Shown here one piece after another: positions 4,873 through 61,150 of a stretch of DNA of 64,000 nt (within the stretch, counting starts at the first letter, position 1; every line of letters starts with the position of its first letter). Below the pieces are notes generated by a model that worked only from the letters and a program-made list of their open reading frames with translations, searched no databases and had not been told where the DNA came from. The translations under genes were made by a program, and so were the position numbers. The DNA is from Octopus vulgaris. Taxonomy: Eukaryota. The stretch covers positions 112,034,001 through 112,098,000 of the forward strand of contig OX597818.1 in the NCBI GenBank assembly GCA_951406725.2. Direction: 5' to 3'.

Positions 4873-5640
4873 TGCCCGGGGGCAATTATACAGTGAATTT
4901 TTTAGGGCTTATACATCTAATTGTTTCCTATCCTTCCTTTATACCGGTTCCCATATGCTGCTCATATCTGCACTCGGTCTGCTCAGAAGGTTATTATGTC
5001 CTAGCATATGTGCTGCTTATCTTAGTTTTCGTATTTTCCGGTGTTGTTCTCTGTCTATTATTCTAATTTCATGTCACAGGGGGGGGGGTAGTCTTCATTT
5101 TCCCATACATGATCAGCTATACCCGATTTATCAATATCTCTTCGTGTCACAGCTTTGCGATGTTCTACCCTTATTTTGAGGGGGCGACATGTTTCGCCTT
5201 TGTATAACCTACCACAGCTGCATAGGATGGAGTACAGGCAGATTTTGGTTATTTTCTCTTCTATTGGTGGTTTTGCTCGAAGGAGATATTTGCGAAGTGT
5301 TGTATTACTTTTGAATAGTGTCCTGATGCCATATGGGCCGCATGCATTTTGTATCTTTTCGGAGAGGCCTTTTACAAGGGGTAGACTGACTGTGGACAGT
5401 TTTTGGCCTCGTGCTCTCTCTTCTTCATAATTGGAGTGGATAGTATACTTTTGGGATAGTTGTTGCATAAGAGATCGTTATTGAGCTTGATCGTTTCTTC
5501 GTGGTGTGTATCACGATTGCTACTTATATTCTTTGTACAATGTTCTAGGAACTGAGCAATCCCTCTCTTTACACTGTATGGATGGTAGGAATTGAAGTTT
5601 AGGTATCGTCCTGTAAAGGCCGGTTTGCTTAGCCTTAACG
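4873..5640 (-). mobile_element. Penelope-like element fragment: RT thumb, linker and GIY-YIG endonuclease (degenerate)
   Basis: TGRYLNFNSYHPYSVKRG, LPLVKGLSEKI, LYSILCSCGRLYKGETCRPLKIRVEH, SGIADH, RKL-EAAHML; frameshifted. Confidence 0.88.
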
Positions 5641-14766: not shown

Positions 14767-15136
14767 TGTGTGTGAGTGTGTATGTGTGTGTGTATGCATT
14801 TACGTATATGCGTGTATGTTTAACTGACGTATCTTAATATCACATGAGAAATTTCTGCTGAAAAATTAATATTTATCTAACAGAAAGCAAACCACAAAGA
14901 TTACTGTAGCCAAGTAAGTCATAAGTGAGTGTTTATTCTTCCCTTGAACACAACACAGACACATAGACATACACCCACCTACACGTGCGCTCATGCATAC
15001 CCACATGCAAACACGCACACACGCACAACAACAAAAATATTTCATGTCTACTCTTCCAGACAAAGGATAAAAAAGAACGAAATAACATTTTACCTTCTGT
15101 CTAGTAATATTGATTTGTAAAAAGGTCATAACTGAA

Positions 15137-15201
<65 letters not shown>

Positions 15202-15245
15202 CAACAACAATAATAATAATAAAAATAATAATAATAATGATGATG

Positions 15246-15316
<71 letters not shown>
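15137..15316. repeat. (TAA)n array with CAA/GAT variants
   Basis: Direct reading; 5' flank of an R4/Dong copy. Confidence 0.95.
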
Positions 15317-15324
<8 letters not shown>

Positions 15325-15335
15325 ATATTATTATA

Positions 15336-16164
15336 AAAAGAAATAGACAAAGAAAAAAAAAAAGAAATAGACAAAGAAAAATTCCAGCAATGGTTGAGAA
15401 GCTCGGACTCAAAGCAGAGACAGAGGGATTTTTAATTGCAGCACAACACCAAAGCCTCCCCACCAGAAATTACCAAAAACATGTAATGAAAAGAAATATA
15501 ACAAGTAACTGCAGAATATGTGGAGATGGACAAGAAACAATAAATCATATTATCTCTAGCTGCCCAGTCCTGGCTAAGAAGAAATATATTCACAGACATG
15601 ACAGAGTTGGAACCTACATACATTGGAAGCTATGCCAATATTATGGAATAACAACAGAAAAAAGATGGTATAGGCACACACCAGAAAAGGTCACAGAAAA
15701 CGAGAAAGAAACCATACTCTAGGATATGCCGATACACACAGATAGAGAAATTAAGGCCAACAGACCAGATATAGCTGTCAGAGATCATGAAGAAAAAATG
15801 CTTTCTAATTGATGTATCAATACCGGCAGATGACAACGTGTCTCTAAAAGAAATGGAGAAACTCTCAAAATACAAAGATCTGGAAATAGAGGTAACCAGA
15901 ATGTGGAATCTAAAAACAGAAACAATTCCTATCATAGTAGGTGCATTAGGCATGATAAAAAAATATTCAAACAAATACATAACAAAAACACCAGGACTTA
16001 CAAACACATATAACATACAGAAAATTGCACTACTAGGCACTGCACACATCCTACGCAGAACACCTTCCATACAATAACCAACAGAGCATCACAACAAATC
16101 ACAGCACATACCCAAGGCACACAGATCTGCGCTCGGTAGTGAAGTGAAAGAAAAAATAAAACTA

Positions 16165-18045: not shown

Positions 18046-19541
18046 CAAAGTCTACGAAGGGATTATCATACGGATGAACCACCTAGAATCCTGAGCACAC
18101 AATATTTGCCAATTTTTTGTTGTCACATTACTAGAAGTTCAAACTATGTTTAGTTTACCTTTTGCTCTGGTGAAATGACCTTTTTTTGGTTGATGACAAA
18201 GCATTCATGGAACTTGCTCTACAATTCTCATAAAAGATAAAGTTTGCGTCGCTTTCTAAATGGGTAAGAGATACTTAGGTGTTTCTACTTATCCGTTTAT
18301 GTCAGGAGATAGATGTCAAACACTTACCCTGCCATAGTCTGTTCCTCTCCAGTGCATTTGTTCCGTTCTCTTGTTTACTTAAAATAGCTATTACCAGTCG
18401 TAAGATATTTTATTTTTAGTAACACATCCGCCCACTTACGCTCAATCACTAGCGGCCATTATCAGGAAATTACTCAAAACGTCTCACTATTGACAGGCAC
18501 CAATCGTTTGCTTCCTTATTCCATCTTGTCCAAATTGACAATATGTTTTCTATTCTCCCTGTTTTCGGATGAAATTGTACCATCGAAAACCGATGCTCTG
18601 GAAGGTGTTGAGTTTTATGTACGACGAGATTTTGTGTCTCAGCGCCATTAGATTTTGTAGTTTTCGACATTTGAATCCACCTGTAGCAAGCGATGCAGGA
18701 AAAGTGGATAATCGAATCTTATATATCAACATAATTGCAGCTGTTAACGTGTTAAATAGAGAGAAAAGAGACGTCAAAATTAGGAAAAACATGAGAACAG
18801 TGAAAAAATTATAACATTATTTCTCAGTTTATATCACTGGATAAAATATAGATACAATTCCCAATTTATGTAAAACGCATTTCTACATAGAGTCGACCAG
18901 AGACACTCACTACAACATGTTCGTCTGAAGCCAGTTACACAGACTAACATTCCAGGCTCATAAATATCGTACACATACACACACATACACCATGCATACA
19001 TATACATAGAAAAGTCGATTATTCTGAAGTATTCTAGTTTCTCATATCGGTATGTTTGTCAAATCGAATAAATATTGTAACTGATGCAGTGATATCACTA
19101 TGCAACGTACGTATATTTGTAGAATATCCTGCGATAACGAAAATGCATTAAGTTTATTATATACCTAACAGCATGAATATGCCATGCATGTTTCTCATTA
19201 AAATGTTATAACACTGAAGGTCAATATGGAAGCAGGAGAGTAAGGCAGTATGAAAGCAATTCTATTATACAGATGTTCTCAAAATATCTCCTGATACCAT
19301 AGTTCAACTTGCTAGAAAGAGAACCAGGATATCCTTCGAATAAAAAAATGAAGTCTTAAATAGCAGAGGTACATCAAGTAACGCTTTTTACTATGGGCAC
19401 AAGTCCTACAACTTTTGTGGGAGAGGACTAGTCGATTACATCAACCCCAATACAGTTCTATATTTAAAAGACGAGGAATTATGTACATTATTTACATTAT
19501 TTACAATTGACGGATATTTTGTCCTCATCTTGTTTGTTGTT

Positions 19542-19587
19542 AACACAACGTTTCGGTTGATATACTCTACAAACTTCATCAGATGCC
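19542..19587 (-). ncRNA. Hammerhead ribozyme motif, degenerate stem II
   Basis: Minus strand GGCAT-CTGATGA-A-GTTTGTAGAGTATATCAACC-GAAAC-GTT-GTGTT; core intact, stems mutated. Confidence 0.55.
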
Positions 19588-19650
19588 TTGGGGAAATTTC
19601 GAACCTGGGTTCCCATTCCTAACGTATTTTCGATGTTGTTGCTGTTGAGG

Positions 19651-19742
<92 letters not shown>

Positions 19743-19785
19743 GAAATGCCTTAGGAATGAGAACCCAGTTTCGAAATTTTTCCAA

Positions 19786-19831
19786 GACACCTGATGAAGG
19801 CTGGAGGGTATATCAGCCGAAACGTTGTGTT
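19786..19831 (+). ncRNA. Minimal type I hammerhead ribozyme
   Basis: GACAC-CTGATGA-A-GGCTG(GAGGGTATAT)CAGCC-GAAAC-GTT-GTGTT: complete core, stem I and II pair, palindromic ACGT stem III, GUU cleavage triplet. Confidence 0.8.
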
Positions 19832-20039
19832 AACAATAAACAAGATGAGGACAAATATCCGTCGAATGTAAATAATAAATTCTTACTTATTTTATCTAGT
19901 CCCTAAAAGATGAAAGGAAGATGACAGACGACCTGGGGTAGACATGAATTCCCAAAGTGAAGACGGACGAAATGCCTCTAATAATTTTTCCCGGCAGGCC
20001 AACGGTTCTCCTCACTCGCCGCTTTAATAGGCGCATTTA

Positions 20040-30070: not shown

Positions 30071-30672
30071 TTATTTACATTATTTACATTTGACGAATAT
30101 TTGTCCTCATCTTGTTTGTTGTTAACACAACGTTTCGGCTGATATACGCTCCAGCCTTCATCAAAGTGGAGACCAACTCCCCCTGTGGGATGATGTTAAA
30201 ATAATAGACAGAGAACACCACTGGAAAATACGAAAACTAAAAGAAGCAGCACATATGCTAGGACACAACAATCTCTTAAGCAGACCGAGTGCAGATATGA
30301 GTAGCATATGGGAACCGGTATAAAGGAAGGATAGGAAAATACTAGATTTATAAGCCCTAAAATTCACCTCAAAATTGCCCACGGCATATGGTGTCGTGGT
30401 TGATAGCGCGGGCTACTAACCCCAAGATTCCGAGTTCGATTTAGGCAGTGACTTGAATAATAATAATAATAATAACATCGCAAAATAACTTCTTTCACAG
30501 AAACAGCTTTAAGCACTTCATCAGTAAATAATTAGAACCCAGGTTCGAAGGCTGGAGGGTATATTAGACGAAACGTTGTGTTAACAGGAAACAAGATGAG
30601 GACAAATATCCGTCAAATGTAAATAATGTAAATAATGTACATAGTTCCTCATCTCTTAAATATAGAACTGTA
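30071..30672 (+). mobile_element. Penelope-like insertion: inverted partial pLTR (30071..30163), GIY-YIG C-terminus (30164..30345), tRNA-like head, pLTR
   Basis: PLWDDVKIIDREHHWKIRKLKEAAHMLGHNNLLSRPSADMSSIWEP matches 4873..5100 in reverse; the two ends are inverted copies of the 19451..19876 repeat. Confidence 0.88.
30383..30452 (+). promoter_or_regulatory. tRNA-like sequence with Pol III A and B boxes inside the Penelope 3' region
   Basis: TGGTGTCGTGG (A box), GGG-CTACTAA-CCC anticodon-like arm, GAGTTCGATT (B box) at tRNA-like spacing; not a complete cloverleaf. Confidence 0.62.
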
Positions 30673-31322
30673 TTATCATAACTATTAATCTAACCTTTAC
30701 AATGTTTACATCTATACGGGATATGCACATTGTCTCACCTTATACTTGAAAGAGGAACCTTCGTTTCTAACAAACTATCGGTGATTAAACACTCACATCG
30801 GCTAAATGGATATGGCTAGTTTTAGTTAGAAGTATCCAGCTAGAAGTTAGCAAATGATGATGGGGGTCAAGCCAATGAGAAAAAGGGATCATAATGTAGA
30901 TATAAATATTGTAAGAACATGCAATGTACACTTTAAATACGAAGGTATTAGTCAGGTAAAATATAAGACATTGAAACACTTAATAATGCAACCAATAATA
31001 TACATAATTCATCGCATTTTTAAGACCCTAGGATGTCATTACCAAGGGGTAAATTTTGAAGATCAATGATCTGTGTAGAGACTTTCACAGTATGAGTTTA
31101 ATTGTATATCGGTTTAGATGAAACAAACAGACACGCTCATCTAATCTGAATTTTGTTCCAAAGCATCAGAAGGAAGAATTTGAAATCGGTGGTTAATATT
31201 CCTTTTTAGCTATCAATTATTTACTGATGAAGTGCTTAAAGCCGTTTCTGTGAAAGCGTGTTGTAAACTGATAGAAGTGGTAATCTCTAAGAGCAACGTT
31301 AATCCATCACAATTTAACATAC

Positions 31323-41557: not shown

Positions 41558-44500
41558 CCGCTTCATAAACTCTCAAATACAAACCAAAATAAAAAACAAA
41601 TCCAAATTGGCAACTATGTAACAAATGAAATAATACGAGAATTAAAACCTGATTTTACTGAGTTAAATGAAATTATTTACGCTTCTGCTAGGGCAATTGA
41701 AACCAGCTGTATGCCCCCGAAAAAACAAAGAAAACAAAACCTGGGAAGAAATCAAACCTGGAGAAGTAAAATTGAAAAAGAGATTGAATTTATGAGAGGG
41801 GAAATATCAATATTAAATGAACTAATATGTGGAAATGATGTAAGATCCAGAACAGAAAGAAAGATGAAGAGAAAATTTGGATCCTCACCAAGAGAAGAAC
41901 TGATATCAATAAAAGAAACGCTGAAACAAAAAGTCCAAGCAAAAGCCCAAAGAATACGAAGATTTGAGAAGAGAAACAAGTTTTACAAGCAAAATAAGCT
42001 GTTCACATCCAATGCCAAAAAATTCTACAGAGAAATAGGGAAGGAGAAAGTAACCGTTAAAGACCCCCTCCCATGGAAGAAGTTCAACACTTTTGGAAAA
42101 GGATTTGGAGTGACAAGAAGACGTACAACATAAATGCAGACTGGATTATACAAACTGAAGGATCCTACCAAAATTTACAACAACAAGCATGGGAAGACAT
42201 CACAATAGCAGACCTAAGAAAGGCACTCACGAAGGCCCATAATTGGAAATCCCCCGGTAAAGATAGGGTGCCGAATTTCTGGCTCGCATCGCTCCCGTGC
42301 GCACACGGTAAGCTAGTTCAGCTGCTCAATGGAATTATGGGAGACCCAAAGAAAACACCTGAATGGTTAGCAAGTGGCATTACTTACCTACTCCCAAAGA
42401 ATAACAGAAACCAACCTTCCAAAAAACTATCGGCCTATAACCTGTCTATCCACCACGTATAAAATCCTAACATCTATCCTGGCGGAGAAAACATATGCAT
42501 TCATGGAGAAGAACGATATTTTCCCCATTGAACAAAAAGGGTGCCGCCGAGGCTCTTACGGATGCAAAGATCAACTGCTAATCAATCGTATGATCCTTGA
42601 GAACTGTCACAACAAGCGCAGAAATCTCAGCACCGCATGGATTGACTATAAAAAGGCCTTCGACAGTATACCGCATCCATGGATCTTGAGATCGCTGGAC
42701 ATCTTCAAAATTTCCCCTGTGATTTCAAACTTTCTGAAGCACAATATGTCGTTGTGGAATACGAATCTCCAATTATACCACTCTAATGGAGTACTTGCCT
42801 CAGAAAATATAAACATCAACTGTGGAATTTTTCAAAGTGACTCACTTTCACCTTTAATATTCTGCATAGCCCTAATACCCCTTACAAGTGAATTAAACAG
42901 AACAAGGTATGGGTATAAAATTGCCAATAAAAAAATAAGCCATCTATTTTATATGGATGACTTAAAACTTTATGGTAAAGACAATAATGAACTTGAAGGC
43001 CTATTGCGCACCGTGAAATCATTCAGCGATGACATCGGGATGGAGTTTGGACTTGAGAAGTGTGCCAAGGCCACTTTCCAGAAAGGGAAAGTGAAGACCA
43101 CAAATTCAGTCGTGTTAGATGTTGACACAGTCATAAGAGAGCTTGAGCAAGAACAAACATACAAATATTTAGGGATAAATGAAGGCTCTGGTATTCAGCA
43201 TGCAAGCATGAAAGAGAAAATCAGGAAGGAATGTTATAGGAGAGTTCGTGCAGTCCTGAAATCTGAACTAAATGCACGTAACAAGGTGTTAGCTATAAAT
43301 TCCCTAGCAGTTCCAGTTGTTACTTATAGATACAATGTGTTGAACTGGAATATGAGTGAAGTAAAGAATATAGATAGAAAAATACGCAAGCTGCTGAGTT
43401 GTAATAGGATGCACCACCCAAAGGCAGACGTAGATAGCCTTTACCTTCCCAGAGCCCAAGGAGGTCGAGGCCTGATCCAATTTGAACTAGCTTACAAAAC
43501 AACCACAATTGGACTGGCCAAATATTTCGAAATATCGAATGACTGGATGCTAAAGCTCGTGGAAAATCACGAGAGACGAAAGAAGCTTCATTCTATCATC
43601 AAGGAAAGCAAAAAATTTGCTATTGATCTCGTGCAGGAAACCCAAACTGAACAACCCGAGGGAAGTACGGCAACTATTGTTGCAAAGAAGGTGAAAATGA
43701 TGGCAATGAAAAAAGCGCACGAGCAATTGGCTGATAGGTGGGAGGAGAAACCTCTGCACGGCAAATATGTGACCCGCAGCAAACAAGCTGATGTTGACCA
43801 GAAGCAAACCCATCAGTGGCTGCGGAGCTCAGGGCTAAAAGCAGAGAGCGAAGGTTTCATCCTGGCTGCTCAATACCAAAGCCTATCAACCCGGAACTAC
43901 CAGGCCAATGTGATGAAAAATGGAGCAGACCCAAAATGCCGATTCTGCAACGACATGATTGAAACAGTGGACCACCTAATCTCTGGATGTAAAGTCTTAG
44001 CACCAGTGGAGTATAAATTAAGACATGACAGAGTTGGCCAATATCTCCACTGGCTAATAAGTCGGCATTACAATATCAAAACTGCCGACAAGTGGTATAA
44101 TCACCACCCTGAGGCTGTAACTGAAGGAGAAAATGTAACCATTCTGCGGGACTTTCCAGTACATACAGACCGAACCATCAAGGCCAATAAACCAGATATT
44201 GTTGTGAAAGACCAAAACAATAAAGTTTGCTTATTGATCGACATGAGCATCCCCTGTGATCATAATATCTCAGCGAAAGAGTTTGACAAGCTCAGAAAAT
44301 ATAAAGACCTACTCATTGAAATTGAGAAAATGTGGCATCTCAAGGCGGTTACAATACCAGTGATCGTAGGAGCACTAGGAATGATCAAGAAGGGAACCGA
44401 AAATTATATGAGAATGATCCCTGACTTACCATCCCTGCAAGAAGTGCAAAAGATTGTCTTAACTGGTACATCACACGTATTGAGAAGAGCATTGTCGATG

Positions 44501-44686
44501 TGAGAACTGTTGCTGCTCATGCATTTTAATTTAACTTAAAAAAAAAAAAAAAAAATAACGAACTACTGAGTTTGGTTTAATGGCCTACCAATATACACTA
44601 TGAGTTTCTTTGCCCTAGGAGTCGGGAAGACACTCGGCAAGAAATGGAAGAAAATTTGAAAGAAGAAAAAAAAAAAAAAAAAAAAA

Positions 44687-58607: not shown

Positions 58608-61150
58608 TAGTTTTATTTTTATAGCGTGCTTTCATTTCACTACCGAGCGCAGCTCTGTGTACCTTAGGTATGTGCTGTGATTTGTTGTGATGCTCTGATG
58701 GTTATTGTATGGAAAGTGTTCTGCGTAGGATGTGTGCAGTGTCTAGTAGTGCAATTTTCTGTATGTTATATGTGTTTGTAAGTCCTGGTGTTTTTCTTAT
58801 GTATTTCTCTGAATATTTTTTTATCATGCCTAATGCACCTACTATGATAGGAATTGTTTCTGTTTTTAGATTCCACATTCTGGTTACCTCTATTTCCAGG
58901 TTTTTGTATTTTGAAAGTTTCTCCATTTCTTTTAGAGACACGTTGTCATCTGCCGGTATTGATACATAAATTAGAAAGCATTTTTTTTCTTCATGATCTC
59001 TGACAACTATATCTGGTCCGTTGGCCTTAATTTCTCTATCTGTGTGTATCGGCATATCCCAGAGTATGGTTGCTTTCTCGTTTTCTGTGACCTTTTCTGG
59101 TGTGTGCCTATACCATCTTTTTTCTGTTGTTATCTATAATGTTGGCATAGCTTCAAGAGTATGTAGGTTCCAACTCTGTCATGTCTGTGAATATATTACT
59201 TCTTAGCCAGGACTGGGCAGCCAGAGATAATATGATTTATTGTTTCTTGCCCATCTCCACATATTCTCCAGTTACTTGTTATATTTCTTTTCATTACCTG
59301 TTTTTGGTAATTTCTGGTGGGGAGGCTTTGGTCTTGTGCTGCAATTAAAAATCCCTCTGTCTCTGCTTTGAGTCCCGAGCTTCTCAACCATTGCTGGGAT
59401 TTTTGTTTGTCTATTTCTTTTGCGTTTAGTTTAGTCCAGTATTTAACATGAAGGGGCTTTTCTTGCCATCGTTTTATCATGGTTTGTTGCTGTTCTATTT
59501 TTAGTTTGGATTTCATTTGTTTTATAGTTTTTGTTGTTTCTTCTTCTTCTTCTTCTTCTTCTTCTTCTTCTTCTTCTTCTTCTTCTTCTTCTTCTTCTTC
59601 TTCTTCTTCTTCTTCTTCTTCTTCTTCTTCTTCTTCTTCTTCTTCTTCATATTTATTAGGTGGTATGATTTCTTGTTTGTATTTGTCAGCTTCCTTAAAT
59701 ACTGAGAACAGTTTTTTGTTTTGCTCGTGTTTTGTCGCTATCTGGATCAGTTTTCCTTCCTTCTGAAGTAGATATTTTTGCAGTCCTATGGTGGTTATTT
59801 TATAGTAGTTTTCCAGCTGTATAAGGCCTCTACCACCTTCTATACGTTGTATATATAGTCTTTCTATGTCAGATTTTGGGTGATGCATCCTAGATCCTGT
59901 CATTATTTTCTTGTTTTCCTATCTATTTTGGTCAGTTCATTTAGTGTCCAGTTAAGGATATTGTAGCTGTAACTTATAACTGGGACAGCTAAAGTGTTAA
60001 TACCTATTATCTTGTTTTTAGCATTGAGCTCTGTTTTTAGTATTGATCTAACTCATCTATAATATTCTTTTTTATTTTCTCTTTCATTTGTGTGTGTTGT
60101 GTCTTATCTAGTTCATGGATTCCCAAGTATTTGTAAGTTTGGCTTTGGTCTAATTCTTTTATTTTATTGGTCTTATTTAGTGTGATGTTGCTACTCTTAA
60201 CTAGTTTTCCTCTTTTCATGGTTACTTTGGTGCATTTTTCTAATCCAAATTTCATATCTATTTTTTTGGTAAATACATGAACTGTCTTTAATAGTGTTTC
60301 CAGCTGTTTGTCATTTGCAGCTTATAGTTTTAGGTCATCCATATATAAAAGGTGGCTGATCGTTTTGCCGTAACATTTATATCCGCATCCAGTTCTATTT
60401 AGCATATCAGATAGAGGTGACAGTGCCAAGCAGAAAAGGAGTGGAGAGAGCGTGTCTCCCTGGAATATTCCTCTTCTAATGGTGATGGCTTTGGTTTTCA
60501 TGAGTCCCTCTTTTGTTTAGAACTGTAGCACTGTTCATAGAGTGCCCTTTGAATTTTATAATCGTTGGTGCTACTTTGTTAATGGCTAGTGTTTCGAGGA
60601 TCCATGTGTGGGGTATGCTATCAAACGCCTTTTTGTAGTCGATCCAGGCCATACTGAGGCCTTTCTTCTTTCTGTGGCTGTCTTCAGTTATGGCTTTATT
60701 AATCATTAGTTGATCTTTACACCTTTATGAGCCTTTGCGGCATCCTTTCTGCTCTTCTGGAAACAGGTTGTTTTCGTCCAGGTGCTTGTTCAACCTTTGC
60801 AATATCACTGCAGTAAGTGCCTTGTACATAGTAGGGAGACAGGTTATTGGTCTGTAGTTTTCTGGTTTTGCTGTCTCATTTGATTTGGGAATTAAGATGG
60901 TTTTCCCCTTCGTGAGCCATTCAGGCATTGTCTCTGGCTCTGCTAGTATGCTGTTAAAGTTTTCAGCCAGCTTTTTGTACATTCCTGTTAGATATTTCAA
61001 CCAGAAGTTGGGGATCTTGTCATGCCCAGGTGCCTTCCAGTTGCTTAGTCTTTGCAGTGCCTGGGTGCCCTCTTCAGTCGTTATGGGGGTCCAAAGTTAC
61101 TCAGATGCTGAGTTTGTTGTTTTAATACTCCTTTTTTTTGCTGTATCCAA
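58603..61150 (-). mobile_element. R4/Dong family B, long 5' truncated pseudogenised copy (RT, CCHC, RLE)
   Basis: NWKAPGHDKIPNFW, NYRPITCL, EEQKGCR, WIDYKKAFDS, GIFQGDTLSP, LLYMDDLKL, YKYLG, GLKAETEGFLIAAQDQ, PDIVV..KLSKY; multiple frameshifts and stops. Confidence 0.94.
59539..59649. repeat. (GAA)n expansion inside the family B ORF (poly-Glu, in frame)
   Basis: ORF 59196..59903 reads through the tract. Confidence 0.95.

Follow-up and report, generated by a model that had tools for sequence, protein, structure and literature searches.

A tRNA-like sequence in the genome of Octopus vulgaris proved to be a constant part of an abundant Penelope-like element (PLE) family, in which it opens the pseudo-LTR (pLTR), an architecture that is apparently undescribed. 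In the openly accessible full-text literature we found no PLE with a tRNA-derived head. From the placement of the head, the ends of the copies and the composition of the sense strand, we lean towards the view that the whole element would be a Pol III unit and that the same masters would have given rise to its short, SINE-like copies.

A broken copy of an abundant Penelope-like family

Several pieces of the family lie in the window, which is the whole 64,000-nt stretch of DNA analysed (Table 1). We re-examined 30071-30677, and the parts that a sequence-only reading had named there were all found where it had placed them; the insertion is a typical PLE insertion and a broken copy of an abundant family. 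Its inverted arm stops one base into the hammerhead core, as that reading had described, and the deletion it had noted between two GAA was confirmed, with 23 nt including the catalytic core gone before 30547. One premature stop interrupts the C-terminus of the ORF, and the spacer is broken up by a 42-nt insert. The source of this insert is unique DNA 700 bp downstream; it took the place of some of the spacer and has the look of a repair insertion templated locally. Relative to the family majority, the A box carries 2 changes and the B box has lost 1 nt. Because its A and B boxes are mutated and its hammerhead core is deleted, this copy is dead, and interest rests in the family.

The claim that the copy at 19.5 kb keeps the TAA junction was also correct, the TAA-to-spacer junction being found on its inverted arm. 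The fragment at 4873, said to end just where the head would start, does end at the head, its exact end lying about 4 nt into it. A second near-consensus B-box-like motif occurs in the spacer just before the hammerhead, at 30541-30549 and at 19769-19781.

Table 1. Pieces of the Penelope-like family in the window and their component features.
Feature	Position	Strand	Remarks
Third family fragment	4873..5630	-	RT thumb and GIY-YIG region
Second family insertion	19449..19880	.	Pair of head-less arms, back to back on either side of a TAA/CAA run
Intact minimal hammerhead of the 19.5-kb copy	19786-19831	+	
Inverted arm, 3' element end	30071..30163	-	Hammerhead lacking its first core base, followed by a tail that has no ~30-nt extension
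Last ~60 codons of RT/GIY-YIG ORF	30168..30353	+	True stop 30351-30353
29-nt spacer	30354..30382	+	Final ~26 nt repeat the head 5' end in inverted, imperfect form (hairpin)
tRNA-like head (tentatively tRNA-Arg), start of pLTR	30383..30455	+	A box 30389-30399, B box 30432-30443
TAA run	30456..30474	+	Length differs between copies
Spacer	30475..30546	+	In the family carries the first in-frame ORF ATG (pLTR position 115)
42-nt insert	30492..30533	-	Inverted copy of 31215-31256; in no other locus
Minimal hammerhead remnant	30547..30582	+	Helix II, GAAA, palindrome; predicted cut after 30577
Tail	30583..30677	+	With the ~30-nt extension, plus 7 nt that begin the body of the next monomer

The head is a constant part of the family and resembles a tRNA

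When loci were sought with the ORF end alone, the head was present, whole or in part, at the expected place in 27 of 29 other loci. A foreign GIY-YIG protein used as the seed recovered 30 loci, all of this family, and in 27 of them the head stands behind the ORF stop; two of the 30, L365 and L366, look like one duplicated site. The head is thus constant between ORF and hammerhead, as the sequence-only reading had supposed. Its presence at the same place in both sets rules out that a single SINE, with a target duplication of its own, had inserted into just the copy at 30071-30672, an event for which nothing speaks beyond the look of the head and to which we attach almost no credence. The loci L173 and L174 (C17, 68.1 and 79.4 Mb) are a segmental duplicate, about 97% alike over 5 kb; L002 and L006 therefore do not represent independent insertions.

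A check of box conservation turned out in favour of the earlier idea, both boxes being intact in the family majority; under a strict pattern, both are kept in only 21 of 61 sampled heads. The two boxes are spaced as in a tRNA, and both the acceptor and the anticodon stem have decayed. ARAGORN, run on the window and 24 loci, did not call the head a tRNA, and Rfam called neither a tRNA nor a hammerhead in the window (E<=1) or in 9 loci (gathering). The best alignment of the head is with a genomic tRNA-Arg(TCG) (z = 8.0), within a comparison set of 35 distinct tRNA sequences, taken from 30 genomic loci, that covers few isotypes, and the assignment to tRNA-Arg is tentative.

Searching the 2.8-Gb assembly for exact 20-mers gave 6,611 matches for the hammerhead core, 3,917 for the head and 794 for the ORF end, with 0 for reversed controls. 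Since 5 insertion sites were met in 20 evenly spaced 10-kb stretches, the copy number is, roughly, in the tens of thousands. The ratio of ORF-end to head 20-mers (0.20) exceeds the share of sampled heads that reach that far (4/61), probably owing to head-less ORF pieces and uneven decay.

Anatomy of the monomer

Long copies yield a monomer of 2,652 nt, consisting of a 269-nt pLTR, measured from head to tail end, and a 2,383-nt body. The order within the pLTR is head, TAA run, ATG, minimal hammerhead and tail. The family majority holds one open frame of 835 codons, which runs from the ATG at pLTR position 115 across the hammerhead and tail and stops 29 nt ahead of the next head. As the first in-frame ATG precedes the ribozyme (L253, C6 121.09 Mb, minus strand; L321-L350), the ribozyme sequence lies in the reading frame. 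The next in-frame Met after the spacer ATG is codon 101. A variable tail duplication of 9 nt keeps the frame, and 5 of the 8 measurable copies are in frame.

The RT domain is recognised by Pfam RVT_1 (E 1.2e-9 on L172), and the frame contains the motifs DKG, GSP and YVDD; a PDB search gave only weak RT matches. The C-terminus is of GIY-YIG type with the CCHH residues present (CxC..YxGxT at 732, His in the region of 753 and 770). Pfam GIY-YIG was found in 0 of 4 of the family's own pieces. The window piece is 39% identical (E 5e-10) to the GIY-YIG region of a metagenomic PLE (L351), which itself matches Pfam GIY-YIG at E 1.6e-4, just under the cut-off. No linker zinc finger was seen by eye.

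The pLTR stands directly in front of the ORF N-terminus in 27 of 30 N-terminus-seeded loci, and the copies are partial tandems forming pLTRs, with inverted 5' arms. That the inverted arm always comes from the first pLTR was ruled out by ORF ends, which often occur in both arms (L022, L038, L048, L050). The 3' ends are bimodal: among 86, 44 lack the ~30-nt tail, 41 have it and 1 runs on; PLE 3' ends with or without the tail are described in a portion of the earlier literature (PMC8557442). By its ORF, GIY-YIG region, pLTR and minimal hammerhead, the family is an EN+ Penelope-like element.

The intact hammerhead at 19786-19831 has the core, a bulged A, a 6-bp helix II, the palindrome and a 5-bp helix I, and fits the minimal type of Cervera & de la Pena 2014, which excerpts of that paper report to be without activity in monomeric form and weakly active when dimeric (PMC4209133). 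None of 27 pLTR-bearing full-length copies has its 5' end at the predicted cut and short copies retain sequence beyond it, so that ribozyme cleavage is putative in this family. With a ribozyme of the minimal, dimer type and no 5' ends at the cut, the self-cleaving RNA that had been proposed was not borne out in the form in which it was put.

Copies that reach the head mostly end at its start, and short copies form no lineage of their own

The top-similarity head loci, 28 of 29 of which lack the ORF, are ranked by similarity, and position-ordered samples were therefore used instead. Among the first 61 of the 3,917 head-motif sites, all on C1, 56 end within -26..+22 of the head's first base and 5 reach further; copies with head and hammerhead and without the ORF, for which a count had been proposed, are thus the commonest head-bearing form. 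The first 57 of the 6,611 hammerhead sites comprise 26 that end 3' of the head, 6 that end inside it (one of them probably double-counted), 21 that end at -19..+14 and 4 that reach the ORF. Hence 21 of the 25 copies reaching the head start end there, against 23% expected from the loss rate of the spacer (binomial P 2e-10). In four full-length copies the 5' pLTR extends to the head start; three of them also stop there (+4, -2, -7), and the fourth, L336, continues for 170 nt beyond the head, into the end of the ORF. An alignment effect accounts in part for ends between -8 and -26, since the 26 nt preceding the head form a decayed inverted copy of its beginning.

Short and ORF-linked copies (40 versus 20) share the same majority and are equally diverged in their 3' part (5.7% versus 5.7%, P 0.87), with no diagnostic position setting them apart; such differences as occur in the head fall in the 20-mer used to select the copies. 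Because majority and divergence are shared, there is no separate SINE or retrozyme lineage. A single direct pair (L122) was found among the 57 hammerhead sites, the others being single or inverted.

The dominance of short copies that start at the head could also mean that the head is a Pol III promoter for short RNAs only (about 250-400 nt, to a flanking T-run), which the PLE machinery would copy like a built-in SINE, the coding RNA being made by Pol II or host read-through. This explanation, close to the idea of the sequence-only reading, agrees with the median distance of about 290 nt between head start and first TTTT (61 copies) and with Pol III products usually being short (PMC10886601, in part). 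The short copies, however, have no lineage of their own, and T-runs missing over 2.4 kb of ORF body would be left unexplained; we regard it as unlikely.

In a second alternative, the head would be a passive fossil, left by a single capture of a tRNA-derived SINE head, together with a 5' inversion, at the 3' end of the PLE. Its hairpin would stop or fold back the RT and so pile up 5' ends, transcription would be by Pol II, and the T-poor strand would be a compositional quirk. The decayed inverted copy before the head fits this account, as do the many copies joined head-to-head at the head-start palindrome, the RNA-seq data without a discrete RNA and the general depletion of TT. Against it, predicted folds at the head-start hairpin are no stabler than shuffles (z -0.8 to +0.4), the A and B boxes have been preserved despite loss of the acceptor and anticodon stems, the head sits exactly at the promoter end of the pLTR, and a T-run deficit is found only in the head-bearing family of the four tested. 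We hold this account to be rather unlikely.

The sense strand is free of TTTT

The sense strand of the family majority, built from 18 long copies and with 30 N-terminal copies, has 0 TTTT in 2,652 nt, a count made after the Pol III idea was formed. Two head-less PLE families of the same genome, whose ORFs are equal in length and T content, have 8 and 10, and the metagenomic head-less PLE (L351) has 4, in line with their synonymous-shuffle means of 7.4, 10.8 and 5.3. In the head-bearing family, 3.3 would be expected from such shuffles (P 0.015). Part of PMC8466645 names TTTT and TVTTT as the shortest motifs that terminate Pol III in mammalian cells, and under these mammalian rules the family has 1 against 5.6 expected from synonymous shuffles (P 0.009), one weak terminator-like TVTTT remaining in the 30-copy majority; the three head-less controls have 9, 15 and 10. 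Their pooled rate leads to an expectation of 12.2, for which the probability of at most one is about 7e-5 by hand calculation, the controls being three only, with proteins 30-38% identical, and the test against the family's own composition being modest (P about 0.01).

Individual copies carry about 0.8 TTTT per kb, against 3.4 and 4.9 in the head-less families. TT is depleted generally in the head-bearing family (observed/expected 0.80 versus 1.18-1.40 in controls), and A-runs are slightly low too (P 0.055). It is because T-runs are missing that we extend the putative Pol III transcription to the whole ORF rather than to a short RNA alone.

RNA-seq reads reflect read-through

Three raw RNA-seq runs, of which about 6% was read, were compared with a family stretch (L006:1050-1900) and gave thousands of family reads; the same stretch is present in DNA runs under five organism labels. 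Depth was equal in both directions, 74-79% of placed reads continued into unlike sequence, and no pile-up of read starts or ends was found in the three runs. These reads are read-through within host transcripts and a discrete RNA is not supported, in ordinary cDNA libraries that lose short or non-polyadenylated RNAs and possibly come from related species. In one of the runs, loose read ends at -7 carrying an inverted head came up repeatedly. The family, about 6% diverged, looks inactive. The commonest classes of RNA change were A>G and T>C, at 35-45 and 29-41 places compared with 21 and 13 in contigs, an excess compatible with A-to-I editing of inverted arms, the reference being one diverged copy.

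A candidate Pol III unit with a tRNA-derived promoter

The head sits exactly at the promoter end of the pLTR. Drosophila Penelope has an internal, LINE-like promoter in its pLTR, as part of PMC2377424 describes, a position that the head occupies in the octopus family. If the whole element is indeed a Pol III unit, Pol III would load on the head of the upstream pLTR, start about 6-7 nt before it and, meeting no terminator, run about 2.9 kb through the ORF and the second pLTR. The RT/endonuclease would then prime at the pLTR tail, and target-primed copying back to the RNA 5' end would carry the internal promoter along. The second head could be the source of short head-to-tail copies, or else they could arise when the long RNA is primed at its first pLTR.

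Host Pol II read-through transcripts could be the source of the protein, and translation of an uncapped RNA is the weakest link of the Pol III reading. A bolder version would have the Pol II promoter swapped for a captured tRNA head, the 2.65-kb sense strand purged of terminators, and one uncapped Pol III RNA serving as both template and message, translated from the ATG upstream of the hammerhead and on through it; we consider this possible, if doubtful. Counting against whole-element Pol III transcription are hairpin stalling or fold-back as another cause of the pile-up of ends, L336, and RNA-seq that gave read-through only. So do the modest T-run test with its three distant controls, the general shortage of TT, the one remaining TVTTT and the mere 21 of 61 heads with both boxes under the strict pattern. 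Pol III is, moreover, considered insufficiently processive to serve autonomous elements (PMC10886601, in part).

The promoter-ribozyme cassette of the sequence-only reading makes better sense as a pLTR promoter serving the next monomer, with Pol III putatively passing through the ORF. More broadly, what survived of that interpretation is the constant head of an autonomous PLE with intact boxes; a separate SINE/retrozyme lineage, self-cleavage and restriction to a short RNA were not supported.

Relation to known elements

As in the canonical EN+ PLEs Penelope and Poseidon, to the extent that these are covered in portions of PMC4209133, PMC8557442 (Craig et al. 2021) and PMC2377424 (Schostak et al. 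2008), the octopus family has an RT followed by a C-terminal GIY-YIG in one frame, partial-tandem pLTRs with inverted 5' arms and a ~30-nt tail at one end, and a minimal type I hammerhead with bulged base and palindrome, and its putative promoter is likewise positioned in the pLTR. Unlike them, its pLTR opens with a tRNA-derived A/B-box head, its sense strand has no T-runs, and its first in-frame ATG precedes the ribozyme, which lies in frame. The Penelope promoter, by contrast, resembles TATA-less LINE (Pol II-type) promoters and has an intron (PMC2377424, in part). Among octopus repeat papers, the parts seen of two give Penelope only as counts (PMC13282606, PMC8967140).

Schistosoma Sm-alpha/Sj-alpha also have a Pol III-type promoter followed by a hammerhead but, in the account excerpted from PMC6765202, are non-coding tandem repeats with a cleavage-competent ribozyme, whereas the octopus cassette is the terminal repeat of a coding element and carries a minimal ribozyme. 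Animal non-LTR retrozymes (Cervera & de la Pena 2020, PMC7229834) are likewise short hammerhead-bearing retro-copies; according to sections of that paper, their hammerheads are of the classical type I and they give plentiful circles 170-400 nt long. The octopus family differs in its minimal ribozyme, mostly single or inverted copies and ORF-bearing parent. The minimal ribozyme and the one direct pair in 57 sites speak against membership in the retrozyme/Sm-alpha class, which calls for a classical type I hammerhead with helix III in non-coding repeats arranged in direct tandem.

TRIMp3 elements (Cassandra, Helenus, Ajax; Kojima 2024, PMC10886601, in part) share a small-RNA-derived Pol III promoter in the terminal repeat. 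Those elements are LTR-type, non-autonomous and no longer than about 1.3 kb, whereas the octopus family codes for RT/GIY-YIG; this coding capacity and the pLTR tandem ends rule out TRIMp3 membership (non-autonomous LTR, PBS and PPT).

Like tRNA-derived SINEs, the family has a tRNA-Arg-like A/B-box head, 5' ends at the head and thousands of non-coding copies; unlike them, its short copies share majority and age with ORF-bearing copies and have PLE-type ends. A tRNA-derived SINE as a non-autonomous lineage of its own is ruled out by the lack of diagnostic columns and equal divergence (40 versus 20 copies). Octopus SINEs of tRNA-Arg origin, OK, OR1 and OR2, were reportedly described by Ohshima and Okada in 1994, and the short form may already be catalogued as a SINE.

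In the usual division, as set out in part of PMC10886601, autonomous non-LTR elements use Pol II and short passengers such as SINEs and Cassandra-type TRIMs use Pol III; non-LTR retrotransposons are stated there to use Pol II, and the autonomous partners of TRIMp3 must do so too. This split would, if true, be broken by a PLE whose promoter derives from a tRNA and whose ORF lacks terminators. Such a PLE would also reveal one way in which an autonomous parent gives rise to its own SINE-like copies, and would provide a genome-wide signature, a tRNA head with T-run avoidance, for further cases. Both promoter use by PLEs and the role of their hammerhead become testable in one small construct.

Other elements

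A metagenome scan returned one PLE relative (L351), which has no tRNA head. It contains an intact 736-codon PLE ORF (L351:68-2275, metagenome contig Ga0209082_1002543), whose RT is 38% identical, and a hammerhead-like variant downstream of the ORF. Family B (L271-L295, from L106:5600-6080) is a younger PLE with copies 96-98% alike, a 775-codon frame and a hammerhead-like motif with a non-canonical core, and it ends in TA repeats. Family C (L296-L320) also has TA repeats at its end and is without the canonical hammerhead core. LINE fragments lie in the window at 41558-44503, 15132-16077 and 58702-59918, one with a 710-codon open frame, and are presumably RTE-like; a LINE fragment has 6 TTTT runs in 2,946 nt. 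At L226 (C12:25.27 Mb), seven tRNA-Cys-like genes, some with altered anticodons, lie within 3 kb.
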